Part shown: in pieces, positions 2 through 19,971 of the stretch
How the letters are laid out: each line of letters opens with the position of its first letter
How positions within the stretch are numbered: the stretch's first letter is position 1
NCBI GenBank assembly: GCA_964592815.1
Contig: CAZQGE010000002.1
Coordinates: 1-60,484, forward strand
Reading direction: 5' to 3'
DNA: 60,484 nucleotides
From: an uncultured Bacteroidaceae bacterium
GTDB lineage: Bacteria; Bacillota; Clostridia; Christensenellales; CAG-917
Notes under the pieces: model-generated
What the model was told of the DNA's origin: nothing
Databases searched by the model: none
The model's input: only the letters and a program-made list of their open reading frames with translations
Made by a program: the position numbers and the translations under genes

Positions 2-3000
2 AAACTTATTGTTCCTCTTGAAGAAAGATTTAGCAAAATTACAGAAAACAACGGTGTAAATTATAGACAAAGCACTAATGGCGATTATGCAAAGATTGCA
101 GAATCCACAATTCCTTATGCAATTAAGGATTACAAACTTTACAAGAAATCTGGTGAACAATATACGCAAATTACAGCAAAAGATTTTGTTGCTGGCACAA
201 CGTATATTTTTGTAGATAACATAGCAAAGGAAGTTCAATACCTCTGCGTAAAAGAAGAAGGATACACAAAGACAAAAGAAGGCAATCTTGTCAACGTCGT
301 AACAAAATACAATCAATTAGGTCAATATATGGTTGGCTTGGGCATTGATATTGGCGCGGCTAATTTGAGTTTGAAGATTGGCGCATTGGGACTTGAAATC
401 GGAAATGCAAAATCTATGTTGCCGAGCTACATCAAAAATCAAAAGAGCCACGACGGCACAACAAACGTTACGGTTGTTCCTTATGATGAAACCACAATTA
501 CGGCAAATATCTCTGTTGAATTAGATATTTCTGCAACGGCTGGAAAACTTAACATTGGCAAAATTCTCGGCACAATTTTAGGCGACCTTGACGGTGTAAA
601 ACTTCAAGTTCCGTCAGAAACAATGCTTGATTCCTCTGTCGTCAAACTGCGCTTAGATTTGCAACTGCTTATTGATTTGTCAGATTTGATGAATTCTCAA
701 CTTATTCTTAAATTGGTTGGAGTAAACAAGTACGGCTTCGATAAGTTGATTTTGGGTGTTTATTATTTGCAAGATACCATCTATATTGACGGTAGTTACT
801 TGAATATACCCAAAATTAGAATTTCAGGCTTAAAGATTTCAAAGATTATTGGCGATTTGATTGGTAAGGTCAGCGGCAGCACCGCTTCTACAACCGAAGA
901 CTTGCTTGACAAGCTCACTTCACGCGCAAACGGCGCAATGACAGCCGCAGGTTCAAGCACGTCCAAACCTTTGGGCGCAATGGTAATTCTTGACAAACGT
1001 AGCTTAACTATTAAAGTTGGCGACGCTCTTATCGAATATATCATTAACTTGCTTTTGAAAGGCTCAATTGATTTGAGTGAAGTTCTTGACAAACTCAATG
1101 CTGAACTAATGATTGAAATGAACTTAGTCAAAGAAGAAAAAGGCGTCAAGAATGAACTTCCTACATTAGGAATAACAGCAGGCATCAATTTCAACGATAT
1201 TAGATATGAAAGAATTGCTGACAGCACAACTTTGAAAAATGCAGCGGCGATGGTCAGATATACGGGAACACCAAGTGAAGTCGTATCTGAATATACTTTT
1301 GCAAGATTTGACAGCAGCAGTATTTTCTATCAATATACTGCAAACGACAAGATTACCAACGACACGGATAAATATAAAGCAGTTGAAGTGTTTAAGGGTG
1401 ATGACGGAAAATGGCACGTTGGTTCAGTTTCTGGTACTATAATCGAAAGCCCAATTTTGTGCCAACTCAAACACTCAAACGTTGGTCTTGGACTTGCCAT
1501 CAAATATTTAGACGTTGAATTTGCTCATTCGCTTGCACCTTTGTTTACTGCTGCAGAACTCAGCGATTATGTAGGCTTGAACAACCTAGAAAAAATATCT
1601 CTAAGTGAAAAAATTGACATCACAACAGGCTTTGATAGCAGCAGTGACATCAATTTGAACGAACTTATTCAATATTTCTTCCCTGACGTTGACCCAAGCT
1701 CGTTACAAGTGCTTATTCAAGCATTGTCTGATAATGGCGGTGACGTTAACCGTAAACTTGAACTTGGTTTGCAACTTGACTTAAAGGTCGGCGCACTTAT
1801 CAAGTATATGAAGCAATACGTTAAAGTCAACGACTCAACAGTTGCCAACGAAAAATTGGCTTCTCTCATCAAGACTTTCAACAAATTGCAAGGCGACGAC
1901 GGAACTGGATATAAGGAAACTGTTTCTATTCTTGACGTAATCGTGCTTATTATGGGTGCGGTTGAAGGCAAGATGAACATATTGACATTGACAGATTTCT
2001 TGAGTTTGTCTATTGAGCTTAACACAATCATCGATAAAGACGGTGACGGTTTGTTCTATCCAGAAGGTGGCGTTGACGACAAGCACCTTATGGTTGGCGC
2101 ATATCTTATTGAAGGCGAATATAAACTTTTGAGTGACAAACCTGAAACTCTCAACAAAGATAGTTTTGACTATATTGCAACTACACAACGTTTTAGCCAC
2201 TATTACAAAGATATGAACGGCGGTTATAGATATGATGCAGACACCAAAGATTATGTTATGGCTGAAAAGTCATTCAAGGGTGTCAGATATTCCTATGACG
2301 CTGCAAACTATTACAGAAATCCATTTGGTGAAGCGTATCGCGTAAACGGCGGATTGTACGTCAATTTGTCTTATTTCAATATGCCTGGCATATATGTTTC
2401 AGATGAAAACGTCAACAACCTTTTGGCGTCCGCTTTGAAACTTAACAACAAAGGCAATTCTGCTATGGAAGCTGGTGATTCTTCTAATGCTTCAACAACG
2501 GCAGATATAACTTTACCATTGCTTTCAGAACAACTCAGCAGCTATTTGAAAGTCTTGCTTTATGGCATCAACTTCACTTCAAATTATCTGAGAGTTTTGG
2601 TTGCATCTGACTTTATCAACCAACTTCTTGGTATGTTGATTAAGGATAACAAGTTGCAGTTCAACAACTTTGATTTTGTAAATCAACCATATTTGAGCGT
2701 CAATTACGACCGTCAAGAATATGTTATGATTGCAAGTGCCGAAGGTCAAACAGGCGCGGTTTTGCAAGACAAAATTTATAATATTGCAGTTGAATCTACA
2801 AAAGAATTGGGTGATTACGTCATCAATGCAAACGGCGAGTTCGTTTACAAGGTAAGCCTTACTCCTGACGAATTGAATACTTATGGAGGCAAATTCTATA
2901 AGACTTACAAATCGTACATCAAAGTTGGTGGCGAATACATTGCTTACGCAAAAGCTGGTTCATACGAAAAGGCAACTTGTGATAAGGTTGCAGGACAAAA

Positions 3001-6000
3001 CGTTCCACAATTCTTCTATCACGATGGTACAAATTACGTTGCCTATGGTTCTGCATACAGCATTGTCCACAAACTTTATAGAACAGAGCCTTTGATTGGT
3101 TTGCAGATTTACGTCTTCAACTATGAACTTGGCATCAACATTGGTATGCCAAAATTGGTTGCAACGTCTTATGATTACAAACCTATTTCTGGTCAACTTT
3201 TGACAAATAACAGCGATTACCCAATGGGAATCTACACCGCTAAGAATGGATATTTGAACGGCGACGTTTTCAAAACTACTTATAGACGTGTTGAAATGCC
3301 TCGTGAAATCTATTCAAGTGAAAAACCTGTTGAGTTCAAAGAAGGTAATGCAGCATATAAGAAGTATTACGTCAATGCTGACAGCAGCGGAGAATATTAC
3401 ATTGATGGCAAATACCTTATTAAATTTGCCGAGGGTGAAAAGAAAGATTATCACGGAACAACATATAGTTTAACTCAAACGGCTAATGCGGGAACAGTAT
3501 ATTACGACGTATATTACACAAGAGCTAGCGGCACAACCAACGACAAAGAAATCCTTGACAAGAGAAATGAAATTTTGGCTGACAATGCAAATGGAAAATA
3601 TGTCAACTCTGATAATATCTTCTACGTTTCAGCTATTGTTCGCGGTTCATTCAGTATGGACACAAACTTTGACTTTGATAAATATTACCGCGCTTATAAC
3701 TCTGCTACCGACCAAGGAAAGCAACGCTATACATATACGCACGGTTCTTACGTTGAATCTGCGACTGGAAACTTTGTTAAAGCTGAAAACTATGAAGGCG
3801 TAAATGAATCGTTGAGCGAAGTTTTGGGCGGATTGTTGGGTAACTTGACAGGTAAATTTGTTTCACCTGCCAACTTTACCGCAGACATCAGCTTTGAAAT
3901 TAAACTTAACTTGGCATTTGAATTGAACTTTGTTCCATCATTGAATCTTAGAATCCGTGACATTGACTTAGCTATTGATATGTGGCGTCGTGAAAATGAC
4001 GCAAAAGACGGCTCTGACGGTTCTGTAACTCATATGATTGGTATATACTACGACCACGACACAGAAACTGGAAAAGCTGGGGCATATATTGATTTGAGCT
4101 ATTTGTTAGGACCAGACGCTAAGATTTATATTGATATGAGCGATATGCCTGTTGAAACTCTGTTGTCAGAATTATTAAATGGCGTATTCAACAAAAAACC
4201 AGCTACTGGCGCGGCAACTGCGGCTGACCCCGAAAGTGTTATTCCAATTGCTAACCCCAATATGGTAAGCGCATTCCTTAATATCTACTCAAATGCTATT
4301 GCCATAAATATCGCCGCAAGTTTTGTCAAGATGCTTGTTGGTATGTTGTTGCCTGAACAAAGCAACATTATCAACGCATTGCCAAACTTCAAGGTTTATG
4401 TAAAAGCAAATATGAACCCCTATGATTTGATTTTGGGCTTAGTTTTGTTTAACGAACAAGGCACAAAAGCAGTTTTGAAGGGCGAATTGAAGTTGGAAGG
4501 TTTCAACGGAGTTCCTTACGTTTCTTCTGAATTAGACTTTGGTACTGAAGAAAAATATGCAGGAAAGGTTGATTACAACGACCCCAACTATATCTTCTAT
4601 TACGCAAACTTTAAGCGTGACGACGTAAACGGCACATATTTTAAGTACGACAAAGGTACTTACGGTGATATTTCAGTTGCCATTCCTGGAAAAGGATACA
4701 CGGAAAAAGTTGACCAAGCGTTCAACACAGAAAGAAGATACAAGAAGGGCGACTATAAGTATGAAGCTGTTGTTGAACCAACGCTTTATAGTGGCAAGAT
4801 TTATCGTGAAACAACTCCTGGAAGCCAAGAAATGGTTCCTCTCAGCAACGATTTTGTATATCAAACATTGCTTGAAAAAGGAATTATAAATTCATATAAG
4901 AAAGGACTTTACATCAAAAATAACGATGGTTCTTACTCTTATAAATCAAAGATGCAACTTGTCGGTTTCATTGGCTATCGCGGAAGCGTCTATTCATTGA
5001 AAGATGGTAAGGTCGCAAACAGTCAAGCTGCTTCTGATTACGTGAATTTGGGCGAGTATATTCCTATGCTCACCTCAGGCACAATCTTTAATTACTTCCG
5101 TGCAAATGAAAACACGCTTAATGTAAACTACAACCAAAAAGGTTCTATCCACATTGTTGACGAAAACGGCAAATTCGTTCAAGTTTCAATGCAAGAATTG
5201 TTGAATTACGGCAAATATAAGAAGGTTGCAGACGGTGTGAACTTCAAGTATGTTCCAGTAAATGGAAATACGGAAGCAAGTGTTGACGGCAAAGTATATA
5301 AGAGAGTTGAAAACTTTACAGAATTTAGTAAGTTTATGGATTTGAATTTGGACGAAATTATGAATACTCCAAACTTCAACATCAACACTCTGTTGTCAAG
5401 TCTTGCGGAAAACGTTGAAAACATCGGCGTTGGCGCGAATTTGAATTTGCTGATGACATTGGACGACATCATCAACTGGTCTTATCAACTTACAAAGTTT
5501 GTAGAAACAAACGAAATTGGAAACAAGATTTATTTCTTGGCAACTTCTTTGCAAGAACAAAGTAAGACAAACTTCAAGAGTAAAATTGGCATTGACTTGT
5601 CACTTAAAGCATACCTCAACGTTGGAAACTTTGTTTATAACCTCGGTGGCAACATCGGTAAGATGCTTGCTGGAACAAAACTTTATATAAAGATGGTTTA
5701 TAACACGAACTTCCATGGTGAAGAAAATGCTGTAACACAAATTTATGCAGAGATTTCGGAAACAGGAAAACTTGCTGTATATCTTGACTTGTCTGATATA
5801 AGCAGAATTGTTGGCTTGGGTGACTTCTTTGGCAAAATGAAAGTTGAATTAGATTTGGCTAACATTTTGGCTGGTGGAGATTTCGCTTTGAGTTCAGGTG
5901 ATAATGCTGTAACAGCTGCTGCAAGTTCAACGGGTCTTTTGCCACAAAATATTTGGAACATCATAGAAATGGCATTTGGAAGCCTCGTGTTTGCAAATGA

Positions 6001-9000
6001 TACTCTGTCTATCGGTTTGCGCAGCGACTTGTTTGCCAAGATTTTGACACAATTTGTTCCTGACGGAAGTATGGATAGCATTGCAAAATACTTACCAAAA
6101 CTTCGCGAGACGTTTGACCACTCAACGTCTGGATTGAGCATCAACTTTGCTGGTGATTCTCCGTCTATTGAGTTCAACTTGGGCTTTATTACAGGTATTG
6201 ACCAATTTAATGAAATTACAAGTTTCAACAAAACTGACGGTACTATTGACTATGCTGACACTATCGCAAAATACAACAAAGTCGGCGAAAAATTTGTTTT
6301 GTCACCAGATGGAACTTATTACAAATACGCAGATGAAAGCTGGTCGATGCTTGAATACGCTCAACCAAAATTCCAAGGTTTGAGATACAAATTGACCACA
6401 CAAACGGTTGACGGAAAACTTCAAGAAGTTTATACAGTCGTTGGAGAAGGCAGTTCTTTAGATAAAAACGACGGTATGCTCTATAAGGATATTGAAAACG
6501 GTTGGATTTCAAAAGATGTCAATGGTGAGTATTATACCTTTAATACTGCCACACACAGAAACAACTACTTTGCATCATATTCAATTCAAGAAGACGTAAA
6601 TGGAACTTTGTTTGCAGCAGTAAACAAAGAGGGTGAAATTCTTTACTACACGTCTGAAAAGCCCGCTTTGACAAACGGCAAACGCTATAAGATTGCAGAG
6701 CAAAGAAACAAAGATTATTCATTAAACTATTATTTGGATAATCAAGTTTACAGAGCCTTTACACAAACGACAGTTGCCGAAAAGCAAGCGTTTATCGAAA
6801 ATAACTGCTTCAAGTATTTCGACGGATATAAAGTGGACGTAAACGGTTGGTATTATCTTGACGGTGCAACTTATAAGAGATTTGTTAGTGCTGAACAAAA
6901 GGCAGAGTACATTGGTACTAAATTTACAAACACAAGGGTTGGTAGATACATTAAACTCGGCGACTTTAATATGATGCTTAAGATTGGCGATTTGGCATTG
7001 AGCGTCAACCAAAACATTGACAACCTCAAAGAAGAAACAATCTTCCAAAATGCCTCAGAAGCGGATTATACAAACGTTGTAAAATCAAAACTTGAATTGT
7101 CAATTTCTATTGACCTCTCTGTTTATGGCGCAGAAAAGCCTGACAACTATGCTGACCTTTCGGGTATTCTTGATATGATTTTGGCATTTGCTGCACCAAG
7201 TTTGGGACTTAGCGGTTCAAGCCTCAAAATCTTGATTGACGGTTTGTTAGGACACGAAAGCGGTCCAACTTATAGACTTGACCTTAAAGCATTCTTAGAT
7301 TTGGAAGACTTCAGCAAAACAGAAGTTTTGCTTGAACTCAACAAGTACAGAATGTATAGCGGAGTAACTCCTATACCTGTTAGCAATATAATAAGGGCTT
7401 ATTTGGCAAACGATAGCATCTATGCTGACTTAACAGGTCTTTTAGGAGCAGATTCTAACGCTAAACTCAAAATAAGCGGTTTGGGCTTGTCATCTATTTT
7501 GTATAAAGCACTTGGCAAAGTCTTAGGCAGAGAAGCAACAGTTGGAGAGAACAACGCTCAAACAGCAGGACACGCTAACTTGCCGACTATTGACGGCAAC
7601 AAGGACGAAGCTCAAAAGAACTTTAACTCTTTGGACGTTGCATATATGATTATTGCCGTAAATCCACAAAAGATTTGCTTGCAATTCAATTTGGAAATCA
7701 TAAATGCAATTTACAGTAAGATTTGCGCATTAAGAGGTGAAGAACCTAAGTTTAAGTTGCCAGACCTTGGAGAAATTTTCATTTACGCTGACTCAACTGT
7801 TCCTAATATCACTGGTTCAGGACTCGACAGCACCGATAAGAAATACAGAGGCGGATTTATGGTTAAGTTCAGCGACGGTTTCTATTTCTCTGCTGATATA
7901 AATACCTTAGCTATAAACAAGGGTGTCGATGCCACTGGTGTCCATAATGCGTATATTTCTCAAACAGAACTGAACAACTACACAGAAGCATTCAACATCA
8001 AGACTGGAGAACTTAAGTTACAAAATATCGGTTTGTCTTTGGGCTTGTCATTTACAATGACGTCAAAAGGTCTGTATCCTGGTGATGGAGAATTTATCAA
8101 GGTTTCAGAAGAAGAAGCAGTTTCTTTGGCTGCGGCTGAAAGATATTCTATGTCAACTGTTACAGTACCTAGCGACCCCAACATGCTTGCTGATGGAATT
8201 TATGCTGTACAATCTGGTAATAAATTTGTCAAAACTGATAAGAGTAAACTTATTGCTGGCACAACTGCGTACAAGTTTACGCAAGATGCAGCAGGACTTT
8301 ACAAGTTCTTTGACTACCACGCAAACAGTATGGCTGGTTGGATGAATAAGACTTTGGGTTCATTGTTGTCAGGCGTAGGACCTTTTGGTCAATTTGAAAC
8401 TTACGCAGGTACTTTCAAAACTAACGATGATGGTACAAAAGATTATTCAGTTTACAGCGGCAAACTTTATTACAAGAAAGACGTAACAAAGAATGACTAT
8501 ACACTTGTTGAAAACAATGCTAGCGTTAACGCAACTTTGCAGCTTTATACGTTTAAGGCTGCGGAAATCAATATGATTTTTGCAAACAAAGCTATACGTG
8601 TTGACGTTCAAGTGGATGCAACAATCAATTTGGGCGCAATTTTGAAATATGGTATTGCGGGTATTCTTTCAAGCGACATTTCATTGAAGGTTACTCACGG
8701 CGAAGCAAAAACGACTCTGCTCAATATCTATTATCTTGGTTCGTCCAGCTTGACAAAGACAGGCAATATTTACACCTTGCAAAACAATTCAAACGGTTTG
8801 TTCTCTGATGCTATTTACATCGACGCAACAGGCTTGGGCATTGGGAAAATTAAATTCCAAGGACTTACTGGATTGTTGGGTGCAAATCAACCTATGAATA
8901 CTGCATCTGATAGAGCACAATCAACAGCTGATATTAAGTCAACTTCTGAAAATGGTACAACGTCTGCTGATAACGGAGCATTGAACCCAATGTTTATCGA

Positions 9001-12000
9001 AATCACAATGCAAAACGGCAGAATTGGTCTTACAATCAAACGTTCAGTAATTGATACAATATTTGCTATAGCAAACTTGAAATTGCCTTTCGAATTGCCA
9101 GATATTCAATTTGTAACCCTTAATATGAACTATGATTCTAAGGGTGGAACCGGCTTTAAGTCTTTAGAAATCAAGGCAGAACTTGACAAAGTCGGAACAG
9201 GCGCAGATATTGCAATTTCGCCTATCTCCCTTGACCTCAAAAACGGAAAGGCAAACAAGACTGCAATCTACAATGAGATTAAGTCAGGTTATGCTGGTGT
9301 AACTTTCTCTAAGACTGCGGGAGCTATGTATCTTATCCAAAACATTTTGGATAACTTGGCTCCAAACATTGCTATTCACATTGATAAACGTTCTACAACA
9401 ACTTTCTTCCGTGGTACGTTCGGCGGCAGCCAAATGTCAGCAGTTGAAGGTAGAGCAACAAATGAAGGCTCAGCAACACTCGTGGTTCAAAGAAGAAGAT
9501 ATTCAACCGTTGATAAGAAATTTGATGATAATAATACAAATTATCCGTATCGTTTGATTGCAGATTTGTCAGCAAATTTTGATGGTGTAGCTTTGGGTGT
9601 TAAAGTTGTCATCAGCGCAAATGATATATTGCTTACAGGTATTCAACTTGAATCAGGATTGCAAGCTATTTTGAACGCTGTTAACGTTATTCCAATTAGA
9701 GGTGATAACGGCGCTCCTATATTAGACCTTATAAAAGGAACTGGCGACAACGACAGATGGGGTTATCCGTCTAATGAAACAGCTCAAAGTACGGGCGATG
9801 GCGGTAATGCGCTTTCTGCTGGCGAAGGTTCGTTTACTTATAATGACCAAACAGGTAAATATAACTATTCACCGGATTTGACAGGCTTAATTAAAAAGCT
9901 CGACTTGAATTTATTTACTCCTTACGGATACTTGCCTTACTACAACGGTATGGGCGATATTGACGTAAATAGCGCGGACAGTACAAAATATATGTCTATT
10001 AAGGTAACTTTTGACAAAGACTCTTTTAACGAATTGTTGATTATGCTCTATGTCATTATCTTAGGACTTATGCAAGAAGCCACAGATGCTAACACGGTTG
10101 GTGTTCAATACTTTGTTGACATAAGAAAAATTATGAACCAAACTGACGGCAATACTTGGCGTGATGCTGTAAACGCAAAGCTAGATGTTGGCAACGGAGA
10201 TATGACTGTTAGCACAAAGAACCAATATAATCAAATTATGAAAGCGTTTGCAACAAAGAAAACAACTGCTGAACGAGTTGAGTTTATGAAGATAATTATT
10301 CCTTCAATTCCATTCTCACTCATTCAATGGTTGATGTATGACGTTGTTAAATTGTCAAAATCAGTTATGGTTTTGGCAGGTATAGCAGGAAACACGCTTG
10401 GCAACTTAGGTAGATTGCCTGCAAGTATTTTGCCTATACCTTTTGCAACGCAAGACGCTTATGCAAATATTTATATTGACCTTGACCCAACAAATGCAAC
10501 GTACGGACTTAGCGCAGACAAGAAGATGCAACCTGGCATTCAAGCTATTGAATTGATGATAAACTGCTCTAAACCTACGGCAGGTGGCACATTAGTCAAG
10601 CCTGCGGCGGCTAGCACGCAACAAGAAAACAGCTTGAAGAATGAATACTTCTTCTTGCGTATCAATCCGTATGCTAACGAAAATGCTAATGCAGGCAAGT
10701 TGCTTGACTTTGCAGAGTCTCAAACGGCTGAGAAGGTATCTGGACAAGTTGACCCACCAACAGAAATCATAATCAATGACCCAGCAAAGAGAGAAGGTTA
10801 TGCTAAGTATGGTGAAAGACAAGTCCCAGTATTGTTGAACAACGAGTATTTCTCGAACTCAACTTTGTATCCGCAAAAAGCAAAAGTAACGTTTACAAAC
10901 GGTTCAAACAGTCTTGGCGACCCGAATAACCAGAACGAAAACACCAAAGGTACGCAAATTATTTGGGATTCTTCTTCTGTTGATTTGACGTCAAGAGATG
11001 ATAATGGAATTGCGGGATACGTCTATGGTTATGCGTTGAATACTGTTCTTTACGCTATCCCTGTAAGAGTTACAGATAAGTTTATGCTTAACAACGTTTA
11101 CTCCTACACAAATAACGGCACAGGTTGGCAACAATCAACAATTAGAGTTGATATGCATAACCCTGAAAGTACGTCTTTGCCTGAACTTGCCAGAATTAAG
11201 TTCAACGGCGGCGGAACTTGGACTTTTGCAAACGCATATAAGAACAAGTCTGATAAAGCTATGAATGCAATTCTTGACTATGGCAACCGTAGCTTGGAAA
11301 GCAATCATATTGTTGAGACTGTTTACAAACTTGTTGACGGAAAATATTACGCACTTACTTTAAGTGAAATGAGCTTGTATCGAGGCGAATACTATTTGCT
11401 TGAAGATGCATATTTCAAAGGCGACGAGACAAACGGAACTTATTACGTTAAGAATGACGGTGACAGAAAACTCTACACCGAAGACAGCACAGTAGGCGGA
11501 AGCAAATATTACCTCAAACGTGGCAAGATGGTAAAACAAGAAGGTAATTTTGACGGCAGAGCTAAAGTAATTTATAACAACTTGCTTGACCAAAAAGGTA
11601 AGGCTATTACAAATTACGCTAATGCCGATAAAGGAAGATACGTGATTGTTCCTGCTTATCAAACCGCATTGCAATATACAACTATAAGTGATGTTGAACT
11701 TGTCAATTTCAAAGACTACGTATATAAGAAAGTTGGCGAAACATACGTTCGTATGACTGGTGCAGAAATTAAGACTTATACTGGTCAAAAGTATAAAGTT
11801 TTGACAGAAAAAGTTGGTGACAAAGAATATTGTGTACTTGATTTCAGCAAGTTGCCAAAAGGAAACGCATTCCCTGTTGGAACAATTAGTTGGGACAATA
11901 AGAACTTTGTTTATGGTTGGACAACTGAAAGTGTTAGCATCGGTTTGACGTATCAATGGGGTCTTTCGGAAACTGTAAAAACAGAAGTGTACCTCCCTGT

Positions 12001-15000
12001 TGAAAGCTACAAGATTGAAAGTGCGTTGAAATTTAGTACTGTAGATGGTTCTAAGTCTATCAACTCATTCAGTAATATCGACCCGTTGTCACTTCCATTC
12101 GACGGTAGCAGCGTATCATTGATGGAATACGTTGATAGTATGAAGAAGTTGGACGGCAGATACGTAAGTGGAAAAGGATTTACTCTTGACGTAAAGTGGG
12201 ATTTAACTGAACTTGAAAAAGCAATGAACACAATCAAGAATTCTGCTGGCAAGTTTGATTACTATAAGGGCTTGTCTTGCAACGTTAAGGCTTACGTCGG
12301 ATATAACTACTTCAAGAACGACTATGTGACAGATAACAGCGGAAAGGTAATTTACGGCTTTAATGGCACAGGTTCAACAGACGCAAACTTTGTTGACCCA
12401 GGTTACATTGCACAGGTTTTGGACGTTCGTATTAGTCTTGCGAGCAGAGAATTTAGCTCTCTTGGCTCAAACAGCTTTGTTATTGACCCGTACAATGAAA
12501 ATACATACCTTGCAAACGGCGAATTTAACAACAACGTATTCGACGGTCAAAAAGTCGGAATTTACTTCAAGGGTAACGTTAAAGAACAAGAATACACCGT
12601 CGGGGACGCAGCCTCTGCTATAACCTTTGATTTGCCTTATGTTTTGAATGCTGACGGAACTTACGAAAAAGGTTCAATCAATGTTTCTAAGTTAAGCTAC
12701 GCAGGTTATTCAGATAGTCTTGACAGATATATTAAGATTGTCATTGGAAATGCTTCAAGTGGACAACAAGTAAAATATGTCAAACTTAATTTCTACTCAA
12801 TGACAGCGTCAACAACAAACTTAACCATTGAAGATACGTTCAACCCTGAATGGTACAATGCAAGCCAATATGACAAGCTATCTGTTTACTTCAAAGCAGG
12901 CAAAGGCTTTATGCACAATATGGACATAAACTGGACTGATGCGAACGGAAATAGACTTGTCAAATACTACACAAATTCTAAGTTGACAAAAGAAGTTTCT
13001 GACATAAGTAGCGGCGGCGTATATTATGCAACCGTAACTGCTAACGTTAAGAATGCTGCTGGCAACGCTATCGGTAACGTAATTGATAGCAATGGAAAAC
13101 AAGTTTCTCAAAGCATTACTCTTAAACTTATTGTCAACGAAAAGCAAATAAAGAGAGCGGCAGATGGCTCTGTAACTTCACACAAAGTGTTATTCTTGAA
13201 TACACCTACTGACATTTACGGAAACGGCGAAATAGCTACCAACCCAATTTATACGACGGCATATCTTGCTGACCTCAACAATTATACGTCAGACATTTAT
13301 GCTCCAGTTGGTAATGGATACAGCTTGAATCCTTTGTTTATAAACGATAATACGCTTACAAACAACTACTTCAAAGTCGGAAATTGGGGCAATGGCAAGA
13401 CGGGTACGGCAGTTAAAGTCGAACTTGCAAACGGAAACGTCGAACTTGCCTACGTAAAAGAGTGGACAGTTGATTCCAGATTGGCATTCAATACCCTTAC
13501 TGGTGGTACGTATAACGTCAGCCTTGTAGTTGGTTCTCAAACTATTACTACAACTTTGAAGGTTGCCGATTACACAGTTTCAAACTATACGTTGGGTGCA
13601 TCTTCGTTGACTGCGGTTGAAGGTGATTTGTTCAGCTTCAATTCACAAGAAAAGTGGAATTTGCCGACAAAAGCTAACTTGGTTTTGAACACGGGCGCAA
13701 CTGTTGCAGACGTTGACAAGATTAAACTTAACGATGTCGCAATCACTTGGTTGGATATGTCCGCTCCTAACGCTTTTGAAACTGACACAGTTGGAAACTT
13801 CAAGTTTATTAGACGCTCTTTCAAGGTGTTCGCAGGTACGCCTTACGAACAAACCTTTGAAATTAGAATTAGACTTGACGGCATCAACAATGAACTTACA
13901 GGTCATACGCTTAACAGTTTGACGCCAGAATTATCGTTGACAGACAGCAGTTGGAAATTGCCTGAAACGGCAACAGTAAATTATGCAAACGGAACGACAA
14001 GTAACAACGTTTCAGTAGTTTGGGACAGCAACAGCTTGCCTAACGCTGCTGAAATGAAGGCTGGTACATTCACAAGAAGTTATACGCTTGCTGGCGGAAT
14101 TTACAGCGGTTCGGTAACGTTTACAATTGCAAACTTCACAATGACGGATTGGGACGTTAACAGCGCAGCTGATGGAAAGACGTTTGCTTATACTCTTACG
14201 GCAGACAAGTTCTACAAAGGTTTGCCGACAACTGTTAAGATTAACGCAACTACTGACGCAACTATTACTTGGAATAACGTAACTTACGGCAACGAGGGCT
14301 TGACCAATAAATTAGTTGTGGCAACTTTAGGTTTGGCAAACGGCAATGTGGATATTGACGTTAACCTAACCGTCAGGGCTGCAACGTTCAATTCATTGAT
14401 TAAGGAAAGCGTAATATTTGACGTGTTCAACCCCAATTTTGACGGAGTTGGAACGAACTTGTTTGTTTCTGGAAGTGAAGTTGACGTTAAGGTAAACAAT
14501 GGCGTTGCTGTTGAAAACGGAAAAGCAACTATTTATTACAACAAAGCGAAGTTATATGAAAACCTTGTTTCCAAACTTGGAAAGAGAGTTAGTGTTCCTA
14601 TGACAATCGACTATGGCTATGGCAGAGAAAGTATTGAAGTTGAAGTTCAATATATTGACAGAAGTGCGGAATATCCGAAGAGCTTGGATTTGCGCGCGAT
14701 AGTCCTTGATACGTTTGAACATTCAGATTTCAGTTATTTGCCAAATGTTGTCTCGATGGTTACAGGTAACGGCGATTTGTTTGATATGTACGTCGAATGG
14801 CCAAGTGCAAGTTTCGTCGATAAGTACAAACTAAACGGTTATTATAACGGAGCAAACCATATGGTTAAAGCCAGCTACTACGTTGTTGACAATGATATTG
14901 GCACTTACGGAATAGCGGGTAAAGACGACCTTAACAAGAATATCTATAAACTTATTTCTGAAATTGAAGGTTATAGCGGAGATAAATATGTCCAAATAAC

Positions 15001-17605
15001 ACAAATGGTTAATATTCCAATCACTATAATGGCAAACAAGATAAAATCTGTTAATTTCTATTATGGTGACAACCCCAACTATAAACTTGCTTCAATTGAA
15101 AACAGAATAATAAAAGAAGTTCACACTTATGTAGGACAAAACGCAAATAAGAATTACTTTGAAATTGAATACGGCAGATTGTCAAAAATTCCAACCGACT
15201 TCAACTTCTTCAACCCGTATGCCTATGACAGAGATGAACTTCCTAAACAAGTATTAGTTAAGTTCGGCGACAATAATTTGGAACGTAAGTATTATGCTAA
15301 GTATGTTCCAAAAACAGCAAAAGACACATTTGACAACAGTCAGATAGTTTCAACTGCCGACAAGACCTATAACGTTATTGTAGAAATTTACAATAACGCA
15401 GGTTTGACAGGAAAAGTGTTGACGTCGTTTGAAATTGAAATAAATATTTCTAGACTTGAACTGACTGAAAACAACTCTGACCTTACGTCAAAGTACCTCG
15501 ACTTTGAGACTAAGCCAAGATATACGTTCGACGTATATTCGTCGTACGCTGACAGTATGTTTGTTACAAGCTATTATGAAGGTGGCGTATTCAAGTCCAA
15601 CTATATGAGCGAAAACGGCATACTTAAAGGCAACACAGAAAAAGGCGTCACAAACTATATTGGCGGACACTTTGTCAAATATGGTGACTGGGTAGCCACA
15701 GAACAAGGTATGAAGTATCTTGCTGATGGTTCGTCACTCTACAAGTTGTTGGGTGAAGGTTCAACCACGTACTACTACAACAAGGTCGGCAAGGATTATC
15801 AATACTCTACTGTTCTTGACGTAGCAAACAGTTATGTATACGCTTATATTGATACGCAAGTGTTAGAAGTTAACAACTGGAATACTAAGTGGAAATTAGG
15901 TGGAACAAGCTACGGTTATGACAGCACCCACGCTGTGATAACGGCTAGTGTTGCAGGAATGTCTGTAAATGGAATGAAACTGAACAGCGCAAGCGAGAAC
16001 ATAAAAGTTCAAGTTAAGTTGGTTGGTAAGAAATTTACGACTGCTGACTTTGACACATATCCAAACACGACAGTATTCAACGGAGTAAATAACTTTGTTG
16101 TAAACTATGACTCGTTTGGAAGCGTCAACTTGTTTGAGCGTCAACCATACACTGCTTTTGCTGGAACACGCTATAAGAGGAAAGTTGACAGAAGTTTCTC
16201 GATTGACAATACTCGCGGTCAATATGCAAAGTACACAGGCATAAAGTATTCAAAGAACGTTAGCACAAATACGTTTGTTGAGGATGTAAACGGTACTTAT
16301 GGACTTCAAAACGGTCAGTACGTTGCGCTTGATGAATATTTGGGTAATAGTTATATCCGACTTGAATACTACTATGGCGTACGTTATTCTAAGTACTCTG
16401 ACGGAAAATACTATGTAGACAGAAATGGACTTTACGGTATCAACGAAAAACTAGATTATTATCAATTATCAAAACTTGAACTTGGTAAGTACACTTATTT
16501 CCCGATGAATTACAAACTCACGGGCAAAGACGGTACTGATATCCTTGTACCTATTACTTGGAATTTTGATACAGTTAATATTTCGTATAAGGGCGGAACG
16601 AGTGAGTTCAGCGCATTGGTCAACGCAAACAATGAGTACAACTTTGGTTCTAACGATATTGGAACGCAAACGTTGAAGTTCACGATTAACGTTACACCAA
16701 GAACTGTTGTTAAGACTGATAGCAATATGTGCGGTATAGCAACAGAAGGAACTGGTGTTGGACTTGCAACAGCTGGCACTCAAAACAGCACGCTCAGAAA
16801 TATGGAAGGCTATGCTGGACATATCACAAAGGACGTTTCTGGCAACTATGTAATTCCGTCTGGACAAACTTATATTTATCCTTACGACTATGTACAACGT
16901 GATTTGCCGAACTACATTGACGTAATCATCAAAGACGGTGCAAGCAGCGTAGTTAAGAGGTTCACAGTTGGTGGCGGTGACGGAACAGTTACAAACAATG
17001 CAGACTATGAAAACACAAACAAGACGTTTATGTTGAAATGGAACTTGTCAGAATTCAACCCGACTTACAAAGGTGGCATAATACACTTGATTGCAGTTTT
17101 GATTGGACCAGACGGCTCACAACAAAACTTGAGAATTCCGTTCTTGGTAAATCGTCAAATGGCAAGTCGTATTGAGTCTATCGGAACAAGAGCGTCTGTT
17201 GAAAGTTTTGTACGCGACGTTGCAAATGACGGTGCAGTAATAGGAAATGCTTACGAAGTAAAGAGAAGTGTTGCAATCTCCTACAACTTGCCAACAGCCT
17301 ACAACGTAACATTCAACAGTTTTGCTCCAACCAAAGTCAATATGGAAAAGAACAAAGTGTTAGAGTGGAAGGAAATCAAGAAGACAAGCGAACAGGTTGG
17401 AAACGCGATAACTGCTGCACAAATAGACCAATACACAGCAACGATTGCAAATGCTGACAAGTACAGTAAAGTGTTCAACTATTTAAGTGTTGATATGCCT
17501 GCAAGCTATGACAAGACAAATCCGACACTTGGATTTAGCGGAAAAGCAATAATCCGACTTGGAACAAATCAATCTATTACAACAAACTTTACAGTAATAG
17601 CATAA
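2..17605 (+). CDS. Giant repeat-rich, Cys-poor, probable extracellular/surface protein. 5'-partial: at least 5,867 aa visible and the N-terminus lies upstream of the window.
   Basis: The ORF track starts at the first Met (329). Hand translation of the same frame from nt 2 (KLIVPLEERFSKITENNGVNYRQS...QLGQYMVGLG) has no stop, so the frame is open to the window edge. Stop TAA at 17603-17605. About 10 Cys in more than 5,700 aa. Rich in Y/N/K/G/D. Confidence 0.9.
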   Translation, partial: KLIVPLEERFSKITENNGVNYRQSTNGDYAKIAESTIPYAIKDYKLYKKSGEQYTQITAKDFVAGTTYIFVDNIAKEVQYLCVKEEGYTKTKEGNLVNVVTKYNQLGQYMVGLGIDIGAANLSLKIGALGLEIGNAKSMLPSYIKNQKSHDGTTNVTVVPYDETTITANISVELDISATAGKLNIGKILGTILGDLDGVKLQVPSETMLDSSVVKLRLDLQLLIDLSDLMNSQLILKLVGVNKYGFDKLILGVYYLQDTIYIDGSYLNIPKIRISGLKISKIIGDLIGKVSGSTASTTEDLLDKLTSRANGAMTAAGSSTSKPLGAMVILDKRSLTIKVGDALIEYIINLLLKGSIDLSEVLDKLNAELMIEMNLVKEEKGVKNELPTLGITAGINFNDIRYERIADSTTLKNAAAMVRYTGTPSEVVSEYTFARFDSSSIFYQYTANDKITNDTDKYKAVEVFKGDDGKWHVGSVSGTIIESPILCQLKHSNVGLGLAIKYLDVEFAHSLAPLFTAAELSDYVGLNNLEKISLSEKIDITTGFDSSSDINLNELIQYFFPDVDPSSLQVLIQALSDNGGDVNRKLELGLQLDLKVGALIKYMKQYVKVNDSTVANEKLASLIKTFNKLQGDDGTGYKETVSILDVIVLIMGAVEGKMNILTLTDFLSLSIELNTIIDKDGDGLFYPEGGVDDKHLMVGAYLIEGEYKLLSDKPETLNKDSFDYIATTQRFSHYYKDMNGGYRYDADTKDYVMAEKSFKGVRYSYDAANYYRNPFGEAYRVNGGLYVNLSYFNMPGIYVSDENVNNLLASALKLNNKGNSAMEAGDSSNASTTADITLPLLSEQLSSYLKVLLYGINFTSNYLRVLVASDFINQLLGMLIKDNKLQFNNFDFVNQPYLSVNYDRQEYVMIASAEGQTGAVLQDKIYNIAVESTKELGDYVINANGEFVYKVSLTPDELNTYGGKFYKTYKSYIKVGGEYIAYAKAGSYEKATCDKVAGQNVPQFFYHDGTNYVAYGSAYSIVHKLYRTEPLIGLQIYVFNYELGINIGMPKLVATSYDYKPISGQLLTNNSDYPMGIYTAKNGYLNGDVFKTTYRRVEMPREIYSSEKPVEFKEGNAAYKKYYVNADSSGEYYIDGKYLIKFAEGEKKDYHGTTYSLTQTANAGTVYYDVYYTRASGTTNDKEILDKRNEILADNANGKYVNSDNIFYVSAIVRGSFSMDTNFDFDKYYRAYNSATDQGKQRYTYTHGSYVESATGNFVKAENYEGVNESLSEVLGGLLGNLTGKFVSPANFTADISFEIKLNLAFELNFVPSLNLRIRDIDLAIDMWRRENDAKDGSDGSVTHMIGIYYDHDTETGKAGAYIDLSYLLGPDAKIYIDMSDMPVETLLSELLNGVFNKKPATGAATAADPESVIPIANPNMVSAFLNIYSNAIAINIAASFVKMLVGMLLPEQSNIINALPNFKVYVKANMNPYDLILGLVLFNEQGTKAVLKGELKLEGFNGVPYVSSELDFGTEEKYAGKVDYNDPNYIFYYANFKRDDVNGTYFKYDKGTYGDISVAIPGKGYTEKVDQAFNTERRYKKGDYKYEAVVEPTLYSGKIYRETTPGSQEMVPLSNDFVYQTLLEKGIINSYKKGLYIKNNDGSYSYKSKMQLVGFIGYRGSVYSLKDGKVANSQAASDYVNLGEYIPMLTSGTIFNYFRANENTLNVNYNQKGSIHIVDENGKFVQVSMQELLNYGKYKKVADGVNFKYVPVNGNTEASVDGKVYKRVENFTEFSKFMDLNLDEIMNTPNFNINTLLSSLAENVENIGVGANLNLLMTLDDIINWSYQLTKFVETNEIGNKIYFLATSLQEQSKTNFKSKIGIDLSLKAYLNVGNFVYNLGGNIGKMLAGTKLYIKMVYNTNFHGEENAVTQIYAEISETGKLAVYLDLSDISRIVGLGDFFGKMKVELDLANILAGGDFALSSGDNAVTAAASSTGLLPQNIWNIIEMAFGSLVFANDTLSIGLRSDLFAKILTQFVPDGSMDSIAKYLPKLRETFDHSTSGLSINFAGDSPSIEFNLGFITGIDQFNEITSFNKTDGTIDYADTIAKYNKVGEKFVLSPDGTYYKYADESWSMLEYAQPKFQGLRYKLTTQTVDGKLQEVYTVVGEGSSLDKNDGMLYKDIENGWISKDVNGEYYTFNTATHRNNYFASYSIQEDVNGTLFAAVNKEGEILYYTSEKPALTNGKRYKIAEQRNKDYSLNYYLDNQVYRAFTQTTVAEKQAFIENNCFKYFDGYKVDVNGWYYLDGATYKRFVSAEQKAEYIGTKFTNTRVGRYIKLGDFNMMLKIGDLALSVNQNIDNLKEETIFQNASEADYTNVVKSKLELSISIDLSVYGAEKPDNYADLSGILDMILAFAAPSLGLSGSSLKILIDGLLGHESGPTYRLDLKAFLDLEDFSKTEVLLELNKYRMYSGVTPIPVSNIIRAYLANDSIYADLTGLLGADSNAKLKISGLGLSSILYKALGKVLGREATVGENNAQTAGHANLPTIDGNKDEAQKNFNSLDVAYMIIAVNPQKICLQFNLEIINAIYSKICALRGEEPKFKLPDLGEIFIYADSTVPNITGSGLDSTDKKYRGGFMVKFSDGFYFSADINTLAINKGVDATGVHNAYISQTELNNYTEAFNIKTGELKLQNIGLSLGLSFTMTSKGLYPGDGEFIKVSEEEAVSLAAAERYSMSTVTVPSDPNMLADGIYAVQSGNKFVKTDKSKLIAGTTAYKFTQDAAGLYKFFDYHANSMAGWMNKTLGSLLSGVGPFGQFETYAGTFKTNDDGTKDYSVYSGKLYYKKDVTKNDYTLVENNASVNATLQLYTFKAAEINMIFANKAIRVDVQVDATINLGAILKYGIAGILSSDISLKVTHGEAKTTLLNIYYLGSSSLTKTGNIYTLQNNSNGLFSDAIYIDATGLGIGKIKFQGLTGLLGANQPMNTASDRAQSTADIKSTSENGTTSADNGALNPMFIEITMQNGRIGLTIKRSVIDTIFAIANLKLPFELPDIQFVTLNMNYDSKGGTGFKSLEIKAELDKVGTGADIAISPISLDLKNGKANKTAIYNEIKSGYAGVTFSKTAGAMYLIQNILDNLAPNIAIHIDKRSTTTFFRGTFGGSQMSAVEGRATNEGSATLVVQRRRYSTVDKKFDDNNTNYPYRLIADLSANFDGVALGVKVVISANDILLTGIQLESGLQAILNAVNVIPIRGDNGAPILDLIKGTGDNDRWGYPSNETAQSTGDGGNALSAGEGSFTYNDQTGKYNYSPDLTGLIKKLDLNLFTPYGYLPYYNGMGDIDVNSADSTKYMSIKVTFDKDSFNELLIMLYVIILGLMQEATDANTVGVQYFVDIRKIMNQTDGNTWRDAVNAKLDVGNGDMTVSTKNQYNQIMKAFATKKTTAERVEFMKIIIPSIPFSLIQWLMYDVVKLSKSVMVLAGIAGNTLGNLGRLPASILPIPFATQDAYANIYIDLDPTNATYGLSADKKMQPGIQAIELMINCSKPTAGGTLVKPAAASTQQENSLKNEYFFLRINPYANENANAGKLLDFAESQTAEKVSGQVDPPTEIIINDPAKREGYAKYGERQVPVLLNNEYFSNSTLYPQKAKVTFTNGSNSLGDPNNQNENTKGTQIIWDSSSVDLTSRDDNGIAGYVYGYALNTVLYAIPVRVTDKFMLNNVYSYTNNGTGWQQSTIRVDMHNPESTSLPELARIKFNGGGTWTFANAYKNKSDKAMNAILDYGNRSLESNHIVETVYKLVDGKYYALTLSEMSLYRGEYYLLEDAYFKGDETNGTYYVKNDGDRKLYTEDSTVGGSKYYLKRGKMVKQEGNFDGRAKVIYNNLLDQKGKAITNYANADKGRYVIVPAYQTALQYTTISDVELVNFKDYVYKKVGETYVRMTGAEIKTYTGQKYKVLTEKVGDKEYCVLDFSKLPKGNAFPVGTISWDNKNFVYGWTTESVSIGLTYQWGLSETVKTEVYLPVESYKIESALKFSTVDGSKSINSFSNIDPLSLPFDGSSVSLMEYVDSMKKLDGRYVSGKGFTLDVKWDLTELEKAMNTIKNSAGKFDYYKGLSCNVKAYVGYNYFKNDYVTDNSGKVIYGFNGTGSTDANFVDPGYIAQVLDVRISLASREFSSLGSNSFVIDPYNENTYLANGEFNNNVFDGQKVGIYFKGNVKEQEYTVGDAASAITFDLPYVLNADGTYEKGSINVSKLSYAGYSDSLDRYIKIVIGNASSGQQVKYVKLNFYSMTASTTNLTIEDTFNPEWYNASQYDKLSVYFKAGKGFMHNMDINWTDANGNRLVKYYTNSKLTKEVSDISSGGVYYATVTANVKNAAGNAIGNVIDSNGKQVSQSITLKLIVNEKQIKRAADGSVTSHKVLFLNTPTDIYGNGEIATNPIYTTAYLADLNNYTSDIYAPVGNGYSLNPLFINDNTLTNNYFKVGNWGNGKTGTAVKVELANGNVELAYVKEWTVDSRLAFNTLTGGTYNVSLVVGSQTITTTLKVADYTVSNYTLGASSLTAVEGDLFSFNSQEKWNLPTKANLVLNTGATVADVDKIKLNDVAITWLDMSAPNAFETDTVGNFKFIRRSFKVFAGTPYEQTFEIRIRLDGINNELTGHTLNSLTPELSLTDSSWKLPETATVNYANGTTSNNVSVVWDSNSLPNAAEMKAGTFTRSYTLAGGIYSGSVTFTIANFTMTDWDVNSAADGKTFAYTLTADKFYKGLPTTVKINATTDATITWNNVTYGNEGLTNKLVVATLGLANGNVDIDVNLTVRAATFNSLIKESVIFDVFNPNFDGVGTNLFVSGSEVDVKVNNGVAVENGKATIYYNKAKLYENLVSKLGKRVSVPMTIDYGYGRESIEVEVQYIDRSAEYPKSLDLRAIVLDTFEHSDFSYLPNVVSMVTGNGDLFDMYVEWPSASFVDKYKLNGYYNGANHMVKASYYVVDNDIGTYGIAGKDDLNKNIYKLISEIEGYSGDKYVQITQMVNIPITIMANKIKSVNFYYGDNPNYKLASIENRIIKEVHTYVGQNANKNYFEIEYGRLSKIPTDFNFFNPYAYDRDELPKQVLVKFGDNNLERKYYAKYVPKTAKDTFDNSQIVSTADKTYNVIVEIYNNAGLTGKVLTSFEIEINISRLELTENNSDLTSKYLDFETKPRYTFDVYSSYADSMFVTSYYEGGVFKSNYMSENGILKGNTEKGVTNYIGGHFVKYGDWVATEQGMKYLADGSSLYKLLGEGSTTYYYNKVGKDYQYSTVLDVANSYVYAYIDTQVLEVNNWNTKWKLGGTSYGYDSTHAVITASVAGMSVNGMKLNSASENIKVQVKLVGKKFTTADFDTYPNTTVFNGVNNFVVNYDSFGSVNLFERQPYTAFAGTRYKRKVDRSFSIDNTRGQYAKYTGIKYSKNVSTNTFVEDVNGTYGLQNGQYVALDEYLGNSYIRLEYYYGVRYSKYSDGKYYVDRNGLYGINEKLDYYQLSKLELGKYTYFPMNYKLTGKDGTDILVPITWNFDTVNISYKGGTSEFSALVNANNEYNFGSNDIGTQTLKFTINVTPRTVVKTDSNMCGIATEGTGVGLATAGTQNSTLRNMEGYAGHITKDVSGNYVIPSGQTYIYPYDYVQRDLPNYIDVIIKDGASSVVKRFTVGGGDGTVTNNADYENTNKTFMLKWNLSEFNPTYKGGIIHLIAVLIGPDGSQQNLRIPFLVNRQMASRIESIGTRASVESFVRDVANDGAVIGNAYEVKRSVAISYNLPTAYNVTFNSFAPTKVNMEKNKVLEWKEIKKTSEQVGNAITAAQIDQYTATIANADKYSKVFNYLSVDMPASYDKTNPTLGFSGKAIIRLGTNQSITTNFTVIA
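773..10678 (+). repeat. Seven divergent protein-level super-repeats (period about 1.4-1.7 kb, or 470-580 aa) inside the giant CDS.
   Basis: Conserved cores at about 773-1065, 2348-2646, 4079-4357, 5771-6063, 7412-7738, 8807-9084 and 10458-10678. Each core has three parts. (i) An IY(I/A)D-L..L.....KI.I.GL motif: TIYIDGSYLNIPKIRISGL, GAYIDLSYLLGPDAKIYIDM, LAVYLDLSDISRIVGLG, SIYADLTGLLGADSNAKLKISGLGL, AIYIDATGLGIGKIKFQGLTGL, ANIYIDLDP. (ii) A small-residue linker with A-x-T/E-A-A/G: GAMTAAG, SAMEAGD, GAATAAD, NAVTAAA, NAQTAGH, RAQSTAD, KPAAAST. (iii) A hydrophobic segment. No near-identical DNA repeats. Confidence 0.75.
10850..17602 (+). other. C-terminal array of at least 12 Ig-like modules (Big_4-like 'LP-x-x-V-x-V ... 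V-x-W' pattern) with Tyr-rich inserts.
   Basis: Examples: YPQKAKVTFTNGSNSLG..IIWDSSSVDL; WNLPTKANLVLNTGATV..VAITWLD; WKLPETATVNYANGTTSNNVSVVWDSNSLP; GLPTTVKINATTDATITWNNV; ELPKQVLVKFGDNN; DLPNYIDVIIKDGAS; NLPTAYNVTFNSF. The protein ends ...NQSITTNFTVIA with no LPXTG and no hydrophobic tail. Confidence 0.6.
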
Positions 17606-17696: not shown

Positions 17697-18740
17697 ATGG
17701 ATTTCACTACAACGGCAATAAACGTATTACTTCTGGTAGCTATGTCAATCCCCGGCTTCTTGCTTATGAAAGCCAAGGTTGTTAAGCCAAAGGGAATTGC
17801 ATATTTTTCAGCAGTTTTACTTTATGTTTGTCAACCATTTTTATCATTGCGTAGTTTTTTGCAAGTACAATACGATTTGTCTTTATTAAAGAATTTAGGC
17901 ATAGTTTTTTTATTTTCGTTGCTTGCTCAATTATTTGTGCTTGGAATTATGTGGCTTATATTACGCAAATGGTTTGATAAACCTGATGAAACCGCTACTT
18001 TGATAAAAGACGGTTATCTTTTTGGCAACGTTTACACCAATGAACCTATGCTGTTGGATAAAATAAACTTCACCAAACGAGGCAGAGCATACAGAGTTAT
18101 GGTTCTTACAGCTACTTTTGGTAACGTAGGATTTTTTGGAGTGCCTGTTTTGCAGTTTTTGTTTCCGTCGAACCCCGAAACTATTGCATATTCGGCAGTT
18201 TTTATAGTTTCAATGAACTTGATGTGCTGGACCATTGGTTCTTACATACTTACAGGCGATAAAAAATATGTTAAAGTCAAAAAAGCTATATTAAATCCTC
18301 AAACTTTGATATTGCTTTTGGCTTTGCCTTTGTTTTTTTCAAGGGTTACGATGTCGGCAATGCCTGTGGCTTTTCAAAAAGTGATAAACTTTTTTGCGGA
18401 TATGACTGCACCAATGTGTATGCTAATTCTAGGTATGCGTTTTGCGCTTGCTCCTATGATTGAACTGTTCAAAGATTGGAAAGTTTACGTTGCAACGCTT
18501 GTAAAAATTATGATTTTTCCGTTGCTTACGTTTGCCGTGTTGCTACCTTTTAAGTTAGAACCTACTTTATTTACGACTTTGGTGATATTGTCGGGTATGC
18601 CTTGCGCATCAATAAACCTTAACTTGGCGGAGCTTTATGGTTCAGATCAGAAAACAGCGGCAAATTCCATTCTTTTATCTACTTTTTTCTGTATTATTAC
18701 AATTCCAATTATGATGGCTATCTCTCAGTTGGTTTTATAA
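17697..18740 (+). CDS. AEC (auxin efflux carrier / malate permease-like) family membrane transporter.
   Basis: 347 aa, about 10 hydrophobic segments. N-terminus MDFTTTAINVLLLVAMSIPGFLLMK. C-terminal MPCASINLNLAELYGSDQKTAANSILLSTFF resembles the AEC family signature. Confidence 0.7.
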   Translation: MDFTTTAINVLLLVAMSIPGFLLMKAKVVKPKGIAYFSAVLLYVCQPFLSLRSFLQVQYDLSLLKNLGIVFLFSLLAQLFVLGIMWLILRKWFDKPDETATLIKDGYLFGNVYTNEPMLLDKINFTKRGRAYRVMVLTATFGNVGFFGVPVLQFLFPSNPETIAYSAVFIVSMNLMCWTIGSYILTGDKKYVKVKKAILNPQTLILLLALPLFFSRVTMSAMPVAFQKVINFFADMTAPMCMLILGMRFALAPMIELFKDWKVYVATLVKIMIFPLLTFAVLLPFKLEPTLFTTLVILSGMPCASINLNLAELYGSDQKTAANSILLSTFFCIITIPIMMAISQLVL

Positions 18741-18765
18741 AGTGTCAATCTGTTTCAAATAAGTG

Positions 18766-18793: not shown

Positions 18794-18818
18794 ATTTTTG
18801 TCTAAATAGGAGGTTGCT

Positions 18819-19949: not shown

Positions 19950-19971
19950 GTCAAATATAATAGAGAGAAAT

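Follow-up and report, generated by a model that had tools for sequence, protein, structure and literature searches.

What is the repeated element in the giant open reading frame (ORF) at the beginning of contig CAZQGE010000002.1, and what could the protein that carries it do? The stretch analysed here (60,484 nucleotides of assembly GCA_964592815.1, deposited as an uncultured Bacteroidaceae bacterium and called the window below) opens inside this ORF. A preliminary description made from the sequence alone had reported seven ancient super-repeats in it. We found six repeats of a large protein module, which are units 9-14 of a family of colinear proteins with 14 units each, and we lean towards reading these proteins as lipid-anchored fibres of the cell surface.

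Six units of a 14-unit protein family

The giant gene is a single ORF in the frame of base 2, with no stop in the translation until 17605. Its visible part has 5,866 codons plus the stop, so the total length of the protein is at least 5,866 amino acids (aa). The ORF-finding tool gave 329..17605, where the ATG at 329 is not the true start, the frame being open upstream to the window edge. Protein positions are counted here with aa 1 at nt 2-4 of the window. Window aa 4 pairs with aa 2409 of a 7,881-aa orthologue (P0001) and the two proteins are colinear from there to the C-terminus; therefore about 2,400 N-terminal residues lie outside the window. The complete gene, of about 8,000 codons, belongs to an uncultured gut Clostridia bacterium, and the repeat interval seen in the window is its middle part.

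All seven core positions reported for the super-repeats share one reading frame, and the first six of them (Table 1) mark significant repeats. Self-BLAST of the whole protein returned the identity match only, and a chunked search was used instead. In this search BLASTP linked the unit with its core at nt 773 to the one at 7412 (E=2e-9) and the unit at 2348 to the one at 4079 (E=5e-5), the remaining units being joined by weaker links, while a common core is visible by eye in the MAFFT alignment of the seven segments. Hidden Markov models (HMMs) built in leave-one-out fashion from the other window units recovered the six with E-values between 4e-21 and 3e-6. The final unit HMM, with a fixed 294-column architecture and 202 unit instances, replaced a freely iterated model that had swollen to 730 columns; it finds exactly six units in the window. 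An HMM made from homologue units alone, with the window sequence excluded, scores the same six at 93-158 bits, against no more than 5.2 bits for reversed and locally shuffled controls.

The seventh core (nt 10458) behaved differently. Its leave-one-out E-value was 0.055, with the alignment lying off the core, it was not matched by the 202-instance HMM, and an hhalign comparison with the unit profile aligned just 10 columns, those of the IYIDL motif, with a probability of 0.4%. This copy was rejected as a repeat: the short motif is all it shares with the units, and it belongs to a distinct conserved domain.

Two further properties noticed at the outset hold for the remaining six. A search for direct or tandem repeats at the DNA level found none, so the copies are recognisable in the protein only. 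The alternation of hydrophobic and polar residues is real as well: the period-2 hydrophobic moment is high in 62 windows within the units, compared to 6.6 +/- 4.5 after shuffling (z=12), and in none within the inserts between them. Neither of the outcomes named beforehand as speaking against the repeats, namely the lack of significant periodicity or a clean match of the unit to a Pfam repeat family, was observed.

The unit consensus, derived from the 202 instances, begins with G-I-G-D-F-N-L-G-L-S-L-G-G-L and continues through a variable stretch and several amphipathic strands to the core, LLGIY...GLYIDLSGLLG..LPKIKV.DLDLADLLADLLGGLLGG, which is followed by the linker GASEAVTAAD, then by ILD..LLGLLISSNYIALNLTADLINALLGLLLP and LPDLG. 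The tripartite core of the preliminary description is thereby recovered as the consensus of the family: LYxDLSxLLG...KIxV..L.L..LL, a small-residue linker and a hydrophobic hairpin with a helix. The conserved part of the module covers about 270-300 aa. Information is highest in the columns for Tyr and Asp of LYxD and for two Ala in the linker motif; the others are hydrophobic core positions. The motif (S/G)EA(V/L/I)TAAD is kept in every unit within an acidic, small-residue linker that is otherwise variable and predicted to be disordered. Such an EAxTAAD motif may be a recognition site for an enzyme or an element of a lid.

The six-unit profile was used to collect relatives in an exhaustive HMMER search of 1.84 billion representative proteins (E<=1e-3). 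It returned 43 proteins, 12 of them at E<=1e-30, and each of the 43 is a colinear orthologue, or a fragment, of the window protein with 24-38% identity. A scan of GTDB genomes for close relatives of unit 13 found none. Seven full-length orthologues (7,286-7,924 aa) have exactly 14 units each, and the window holds units 9-14. Window units are 26-38% identical to the positional orthologue (38% for unit 14) compared to 11-25% to paralogues, and paralogues within the window are 15-28% identical to each other. As the positional orthologues are closer than the paralogues, the duplications must be older than the divergence of the species. They are, judging from these sequences, ancient and have left no repeat in the DNA, which bears out the initial view of an old duplication under selection rather than an assembly artefact. 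The expectation of a further copy about 0.8 kb upstream of the window was right in that there are more copies upstream; it is not one copy at that distance, as the orthologues imply eight of them in the missing 2,400 aa or so.

A pattern scan of GTDB with the conserved domain that follows the repeats (alignment A7) located the family in 20 species representatives. All of these carriers are uncultured metagenome-assembled genomes (MAGs) from human, sheep, deer, rabbit and rumen samples, labelled as Clostridia, Clostridiales or Christensenellales and, in five cases, as Bacteroidaceae. The title "uncultured Bacteroidaceae" on these five MAGs (L088-L090, L094, L095) is probably a taxonomic mislabel or a sign of bin contamination. 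The methionyl-tRNA synthetase (MetRS) of the window is at most 72% identical to that of any GTDB species representative, with "uncultured Clostridiales UMGS1170" at the top and Lachnospiraceae and other Clostridia next (63-68% identity). UMGS1170 also has a syntenic giant ORF, whose C-terminal 1,800 aa are 26% identical. Identity between species of 24-38% for the giant protein, set against 72% for the MetRS of the nearest genome with a syntenic ORF, points to rapid divergence typical of exposed surface proteins. The family is confined to a clade of gut Clostridia and is diverging rapidly.

None of the source annotations of the homologues names these proteins. Neither the repeat region of the window protein nor the first 4,000 aa of two orthologues had a match in Pfam or NCBIfam, and Pfam searches with 50 single units (E<=10) and 51 unit pairs (E<=1) produced non-reproducible singletons only. 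These isolated matches (DUF6603 at E=7.6e-4, Tag1_C, FIVAR and others) were not repeated across the members and were rejected as noise. PDB sequence searches with the unit, both with single sequences and with profiles (the latter to E<=10), returned nothing, and literature searches brought up nothing relevant on a giant lipoprotein of Clostridia or on LolA-like proteins in tandem. We infer that the module is a new domain family, undescribed in the sources searched.

Table 1. Features of the giant gene in the window (E, 294-column unit HMM; bits, HMM built from homologue units only; u, unit of an orthologue)
Feature	Position (nt)	Strand	Position (aa)	LYxD core (nt)	E	Bits	Remarks
Giant gene, C-terminal 5,866 codons and stop	2..17605	+					frame open from base 2; colinear with orthologue P0001
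Unit 9 of 14	350..1219	+	117-406	773	4e-43	119.5	nearest unit in P0001 and in P0002 is u9
Inter-unit insert	1220-1480	+
Unit 10	1481..2749	+	494-916	2348	4e-41	105.9	34-35% identical to orthologue u10; internal insert of about 130 aa
Variable Tyr/Gly/Lys-rich insert	2750..3664	+					10% Tyr vs 5% in units; period-2 amphipathic windows 0
Unit 11	3665..4492	+	1222-1497	4079	9e-55	149.5	32-37% identical to orthologue u11
Inter-unit insert	4493-5329	+
Unit 12	5330..6160	+	1777-2053	5771	8e-43	119.1	26-34% identical to orthologue u12
Inter-unit insert	6161-6955	+
Unit 13	6956..7795	+	2319-2598	7412	6e-56	158.5	modelled
Inter-unit insert	7796-8371	+
Unit 14 (last)	8372..9175	+	2791-3058	8807	3e-42	93.2	in two-unit model
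Linker motif, first example	932-952		311-317				HMM positions 204-211
Linker motif, second example	4208-4228		1403-1409				HMM positions 204-211
Post-repeat region	9176..11698	+					orthologue alignment A7, 17 invariant columns; holds IYIDL at nt 10469-10483
C-terminal beta-rich region with Ig-like domains	11699..17602	+					Big_4 matches; 26% identity to UMGS1170 ORF

Predicted fold of the module

Units 1-8 are compact while units 9-14 bear Tyr-rich inserts of 190-460 aa. The inserts are rich in short hairpin-like motifs of the form G-x-Y-Y/K and are present only in or after units 9-14, never in units 1-8.

A single unit (aa 2300-2640) was modelled with AlphaFold2 from 50 aligned units. The model, with a mean predicted local confidence (pLDDT) of 69 and a predicted template modelling score (pTM) of 0.51, combines long strands with three helices and has a disordered linker. 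Its Foldseek search against the PDB gave nothing significant, with LolA in the 25th place (E=0.37); the hot-dog fold, which provided the best matches (E=0.016), was rejected because of template modelling (TM) scores below 0.2. A two-unit model (aa 2311-3078, 768 aa) was then based on 51 aligned non-overlapping unit pairs. Alignments made from overlapping windows or from single units were discarded; in the latter, the single units had piled onto one target unit.

The two-unit model reached pLDDT 70.8 and pTM 0.60; in the models, the core blocks of unit 13 are at pLDDT 85-92. According to DSSP, unit 13 has 11 strands of 3-14 residues, mostly joined by short turns, and three helices (model residues 77-87, 186-195 and 254-267), with residues 203-234 forming the disordered linker. 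The module is accordingly predicted to be a meander in which about 11 antiparallel strands, long and amphipathic, are accompanied by three helices that are amphipathic as well; the long amphipathic strands expected from the outset appear both in the models and in the period-2 analysis. The insert at 7796-8371 was partly modelled as additional beta-hairpins (pLDDT 75-89). Confident hairpins running on into the insert agree with a continuous array and less with a beads-on-a-string arrangement.

In the PDB, the two-unit model was matched by LolB of Porphyromonas gingivalis (9tpm, E=9.4e-4, Foldseek probability 0.97), by Staphylococcus aureus SAOUHSC_02783 (4egd, 0.99) and by Mycobacterium tuberculosis LprG with a bound PIM (3mha, 0.94-0.96). 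The list also includes LppX (2byo), the beta/alpha1 region of ApoB100 (9bd1) near the top, nitrobindin and, lower down, MucB. Nearly all top matches are lipid-binding half-barrels of the LolA-type beta-clam superfamily. This superfamily is defined by a curved antiparallel sheet of 11 strands that is covered by a lid of short helices; in sequence, the members resemble each other very little (PMC6363788). The superpositions on the lipid carriers gave TM-scores of only 0.27-0.34 at a root-mean-square deviation of 12-15 Å, and on no solved beta-clam member was a same-fold superposition (TM about 0.5 or more) reached. The models therefore hint, if weakly, at the LolA/LolB/LprG beta-clam (CATH 2.50.20) as the closest known fold. 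The groove-like fold proposed initially survives in this loose sense, the nearest fold being a pocket-forming lipid-binding one of the LolB/LprG type; the similarity is weak.

A proposed surface fibre and its alternatives

The two ends of the protein bear on its location. All complete N-termini of the orthologues have a signal peptide of the form M(K/R)K...L(V/I/A/T)AC. Twelve of them contain a strict lipobox, [LVI][ASTVI][GAS]C, with the Cys at position 24 (e.g., MKKLKYAFLFVLVLCLIGVSLVAC), and two more (P0013 and P0018) read FVAC, with the Cys likewise at 24. By these N-termini the family consists of membrane-anchored lipoproteins, and the window protein, whose own 5' end is off-window, is presumably one of them. 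No LPXTG motif was found at any C-terminus, and the window protein has no C-terminal sorting signal.

On the 3' side of unit 14 a conserved region of about 800 aa is followed by about 2,000 beta-rich aa. The former includes a domain at about 9900-10920 (aa 3300-3640 or so) which is better conserved among the orthologues than any other part of the protein (LPxPFAxxD...YID...GxQxIE...N) and has no match in Pfam or PDB. In the latter, a Big_4 domain (PF07532) with an immunoglobulin-like (Ig-like) fold is found at 13946-14074 (25.2 bits, cutoff 22.1) and a second, weak one at 16496-16621 (E=0.081). The likeness to Big_4 surface proteins is limited to the one C-terminal domain above the threshold, the repeat units being unrelated to Big_4.

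The lipobox N-termini and the Ig-like Big_4 domain indicate a surface location. The rapid divergence, the fixed locus and the gut and rumen habitat of the carriers (MAGs of Clostridia/Christensenellales) were counted in support of the reading that follows. We consider it moderately probable, and a better account than any other discussed here, that the protein is a lipid-anchored surface fibre of the adhesin type, in which 14 modules form an extended stalk presenting the C-terminal region beyond the wall. The lipobox Cys would anchor the protein in the membrane; the modules following it, whose nearest structural relatives are presumably the LolA/LolB/LprG-type beta-clams, would build a semi-rigid stalk; and this stalk would project the Ig-like region through and past the cell wall. 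It is this projection beyond the wall that suggests the role of a surface fibre or adhesin.

Ebh of S. aureus, with about 10,000 aa, is an example of a giant repetitive surface protein or adhesin in a Gram-positive bacterium. Such giants share with the window protein a length of thousands of residues, tandem modules that diverged anciently, a location at the cell surface (presumed for the window protein), Ig-like domains and rapid divergence. Unlike them, the family described here has an N-terminal lipobox as its anchor rather than LPXTG or a C-terminal transmembrane segment, an unusually large module of no described family, and a copy number which is not variable but fixed at 14 in every full-length orthologue.

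Several observations speak against a surface fibre. Apart from the one clear Big_4, no adhesion-specific domain was detected. The members of the family are known from sequences and predicted models alone, the N-terminal anchor is taken over from the orthologues as the window lacks the 5' end, and the packing of the modules into a stalk relies on pTM and secondary structure only. Structurally, the modules come closest to lipid carriers, a sign of some function other than that of a passive stalk, and the fibre reading does not account for the conserved linker motif.

These lipid carriers are the basis of the next best explanation, according to which each module would be a LolA/LprG-like beta-clam with a hydrophobic pocket, and the 14 together, anchored in the membrane, would serve to bind, store or pass on lipids, glycolipids or lipoproteins. 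The protein would then be a chain of carrier domains across the thick monoderm wall instead of a passive stalk. We regard this as rather unlikely, although the Foldseek matches of the two-unit model are led by lipid-binding half-barrels with probabilities of up to 0.99, while its matches in a viral structure library are at chance level (0.16 at most). The 11 strands and three helices predicted for unit 13 correspond to the sheet of 11 strands and the helical lid given for the superfamily (PMC6363788), a likeness in counts only. Strongly amphipathic strands would also suit a lipid-binding protein, and the giant protein appears to be a lipoprotein itself, as are LprG, LppX and LolB. On the other side, the superpositions stay under the usual same-fold level, the single-unit model has no significant match, and searches for LolA, LolB, LppX_LprAFG and MucB_RseB of Pfam found none, whether in 50 units (E<=10) or in 51 pairs (E<=1). 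No lipid transporter gene is demonstrably linked to the locus.

The comparison with LolA, LolB, LprG and LppX is similarly divided. They have in common with the module, as it is modelled, a count of about 11 antiparallel amphipathic strands and three short helices, and they are envelope lipoproteins. However, each known member of the fold is a single domain of about 200 aa in contrast to the 14 tandem modules of 270-550 aa found here, in which the helices are spread along the module and the module is interrupted by a long disordered linker, and no sequence profile connects the two.

The fibre and the lipid-handling readings are not mutually exclusive. If the chain carried 14 true LolA/LprG-type pockets on one anchor, it could serve as a wall-spanning relay for lipids, glycolipids or lipoproteins with the EAxTAAD linker as a gating lid. 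We mention this as a speculation on the models, less likely still than lipid binding as such.

The linker motif can also be read as a processing site, in which case the giant protein would be a precursor cut into at least 14 separate module proteins of the surface. Conservation of a short motif in 202 instances inside a variable, disordered linker is what such a polyprotein might be expected to show. However, the motif is located within the module, between the helix that comes after the LYxD core and the next hairpin with its helix, so that cleavage would split the modules, and no protease is linked to the locus. We find a polyprotein very improbable.

About as poorly, or slightly worse, stands an open beta-groove of the AsmA/TamB/VPS13 type or a beta-solenoid adhesin, which takes up the structural suggestion made originally. 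Long arrays of strands whose polarity alternates, in a very long, repetitive and membrane-anchored protein, recall the bridges formed by AsmA, TamB, YhdP and VPS13, with their repeated blocks of amphipathic beta-strands. However, Pfam AsmA, AsmA_2, TamB, DUF748 and DUF3971 were found neither in the 50 units (E<=10) nor in the 51 pairs or the whole protein (E<=1), and TamB, VPS13, ATG2 and beta-helix structures were absent from the Foldseek matches of both models. Unlike these bridges, each module here has three amphipathic helices and a disordered linker, and a Clostridia host has, to judge from its taxonomy, no outer membrane to bridge. A solenoid is equally at odds with the models: beta-solenoid and beta-helix adhesins are made of short parallel strands of 3-6 residues every 18-25 residues or so, whereas the models show antiparallel hairpin strands of 10-14 residues next to the helices, and the DNA has no short tandem period. 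Groove and solenoid were both rejected on these results.

That the repeats are a chance or low-complexity resemblance or an assembly artefact, as the motif-only match of the seventh copy might suggest, is already refuted for units 9-14 by the leave-one-out E-values, the gap between real and control scores, the lack of a DNA repeat and the same architecture in independent assemblies from many samples.

The locus and what the family means for its carriers

Eight genomes share the giant-gene locus, which is fixed and syntenic in them. Of the seven homologue loci, six (L082-L087) have upstream genes that encode an HGSNAT-like membrane acyltransferase, a small protein, a GH20 hexosaminidase, a protein of about 290 aa without a Pfam match, and a PIG-L deacetylase. 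The locus of P0001 (L081) departs from this pattern in having neither GH20 nor PIG-L. By their annotation, these upstream genes would suggest the handling of amino sugars or cell wall glycans.

Downstream, the homologue loci contain genes for a Mem_trans/SBF permease, an SPFH/Band_7 protein, a zinc-ribbon protein, DUF1858, an HTH-cupin protein, SpmA/B and MetRS, in an order kept in the loci (seven examined) whose sequence reaches that far. The window has the same order at 17697-23183 and 23299-25242, with DUF1858 left out of the comparison. The permease gene begins 92 bp past the giant gene on the same strand. The SPFH/Band_7 protein has three C-terminal zinc ribbons and the adjoining zinc-ribbon protein a hydrophobic tail; the SpmA/SpmB-like genes are on the minus strand, and MetRS comes after them.

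The remainder of the window is unremarkable bacterial chromosome of about 38% G+C and includes, besides the Mem_trans permease, the SPFH/zinc-ribbon protein and MetRS, the genes for TatD and KsgA and the S10 ribosomal-protein operon. An ORF of 332 aa (27816-28814), located after ksgA and before this operon, has no Pfam match; its middle part is rich in Lys, Glu and Asn.

Giant repetitive surface proteins are common and well known. What the sources searched do not describe is the module, its size, the fixed count of 14 and a possible beta-clam fold. A description of the module would add a domain family and provide an annotation for the largest gene of the carrier genomes. If the protein is an adhesin, it would be a major molecule by which a poorly known gut lineage contacts its host or particles. 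If the weak likeness to LolA and LprG is true, the protein would be the first case of such lipid-binding domains in a tandem array and a candidate for lipid or glycolipid handling across the Gram-positive wall.

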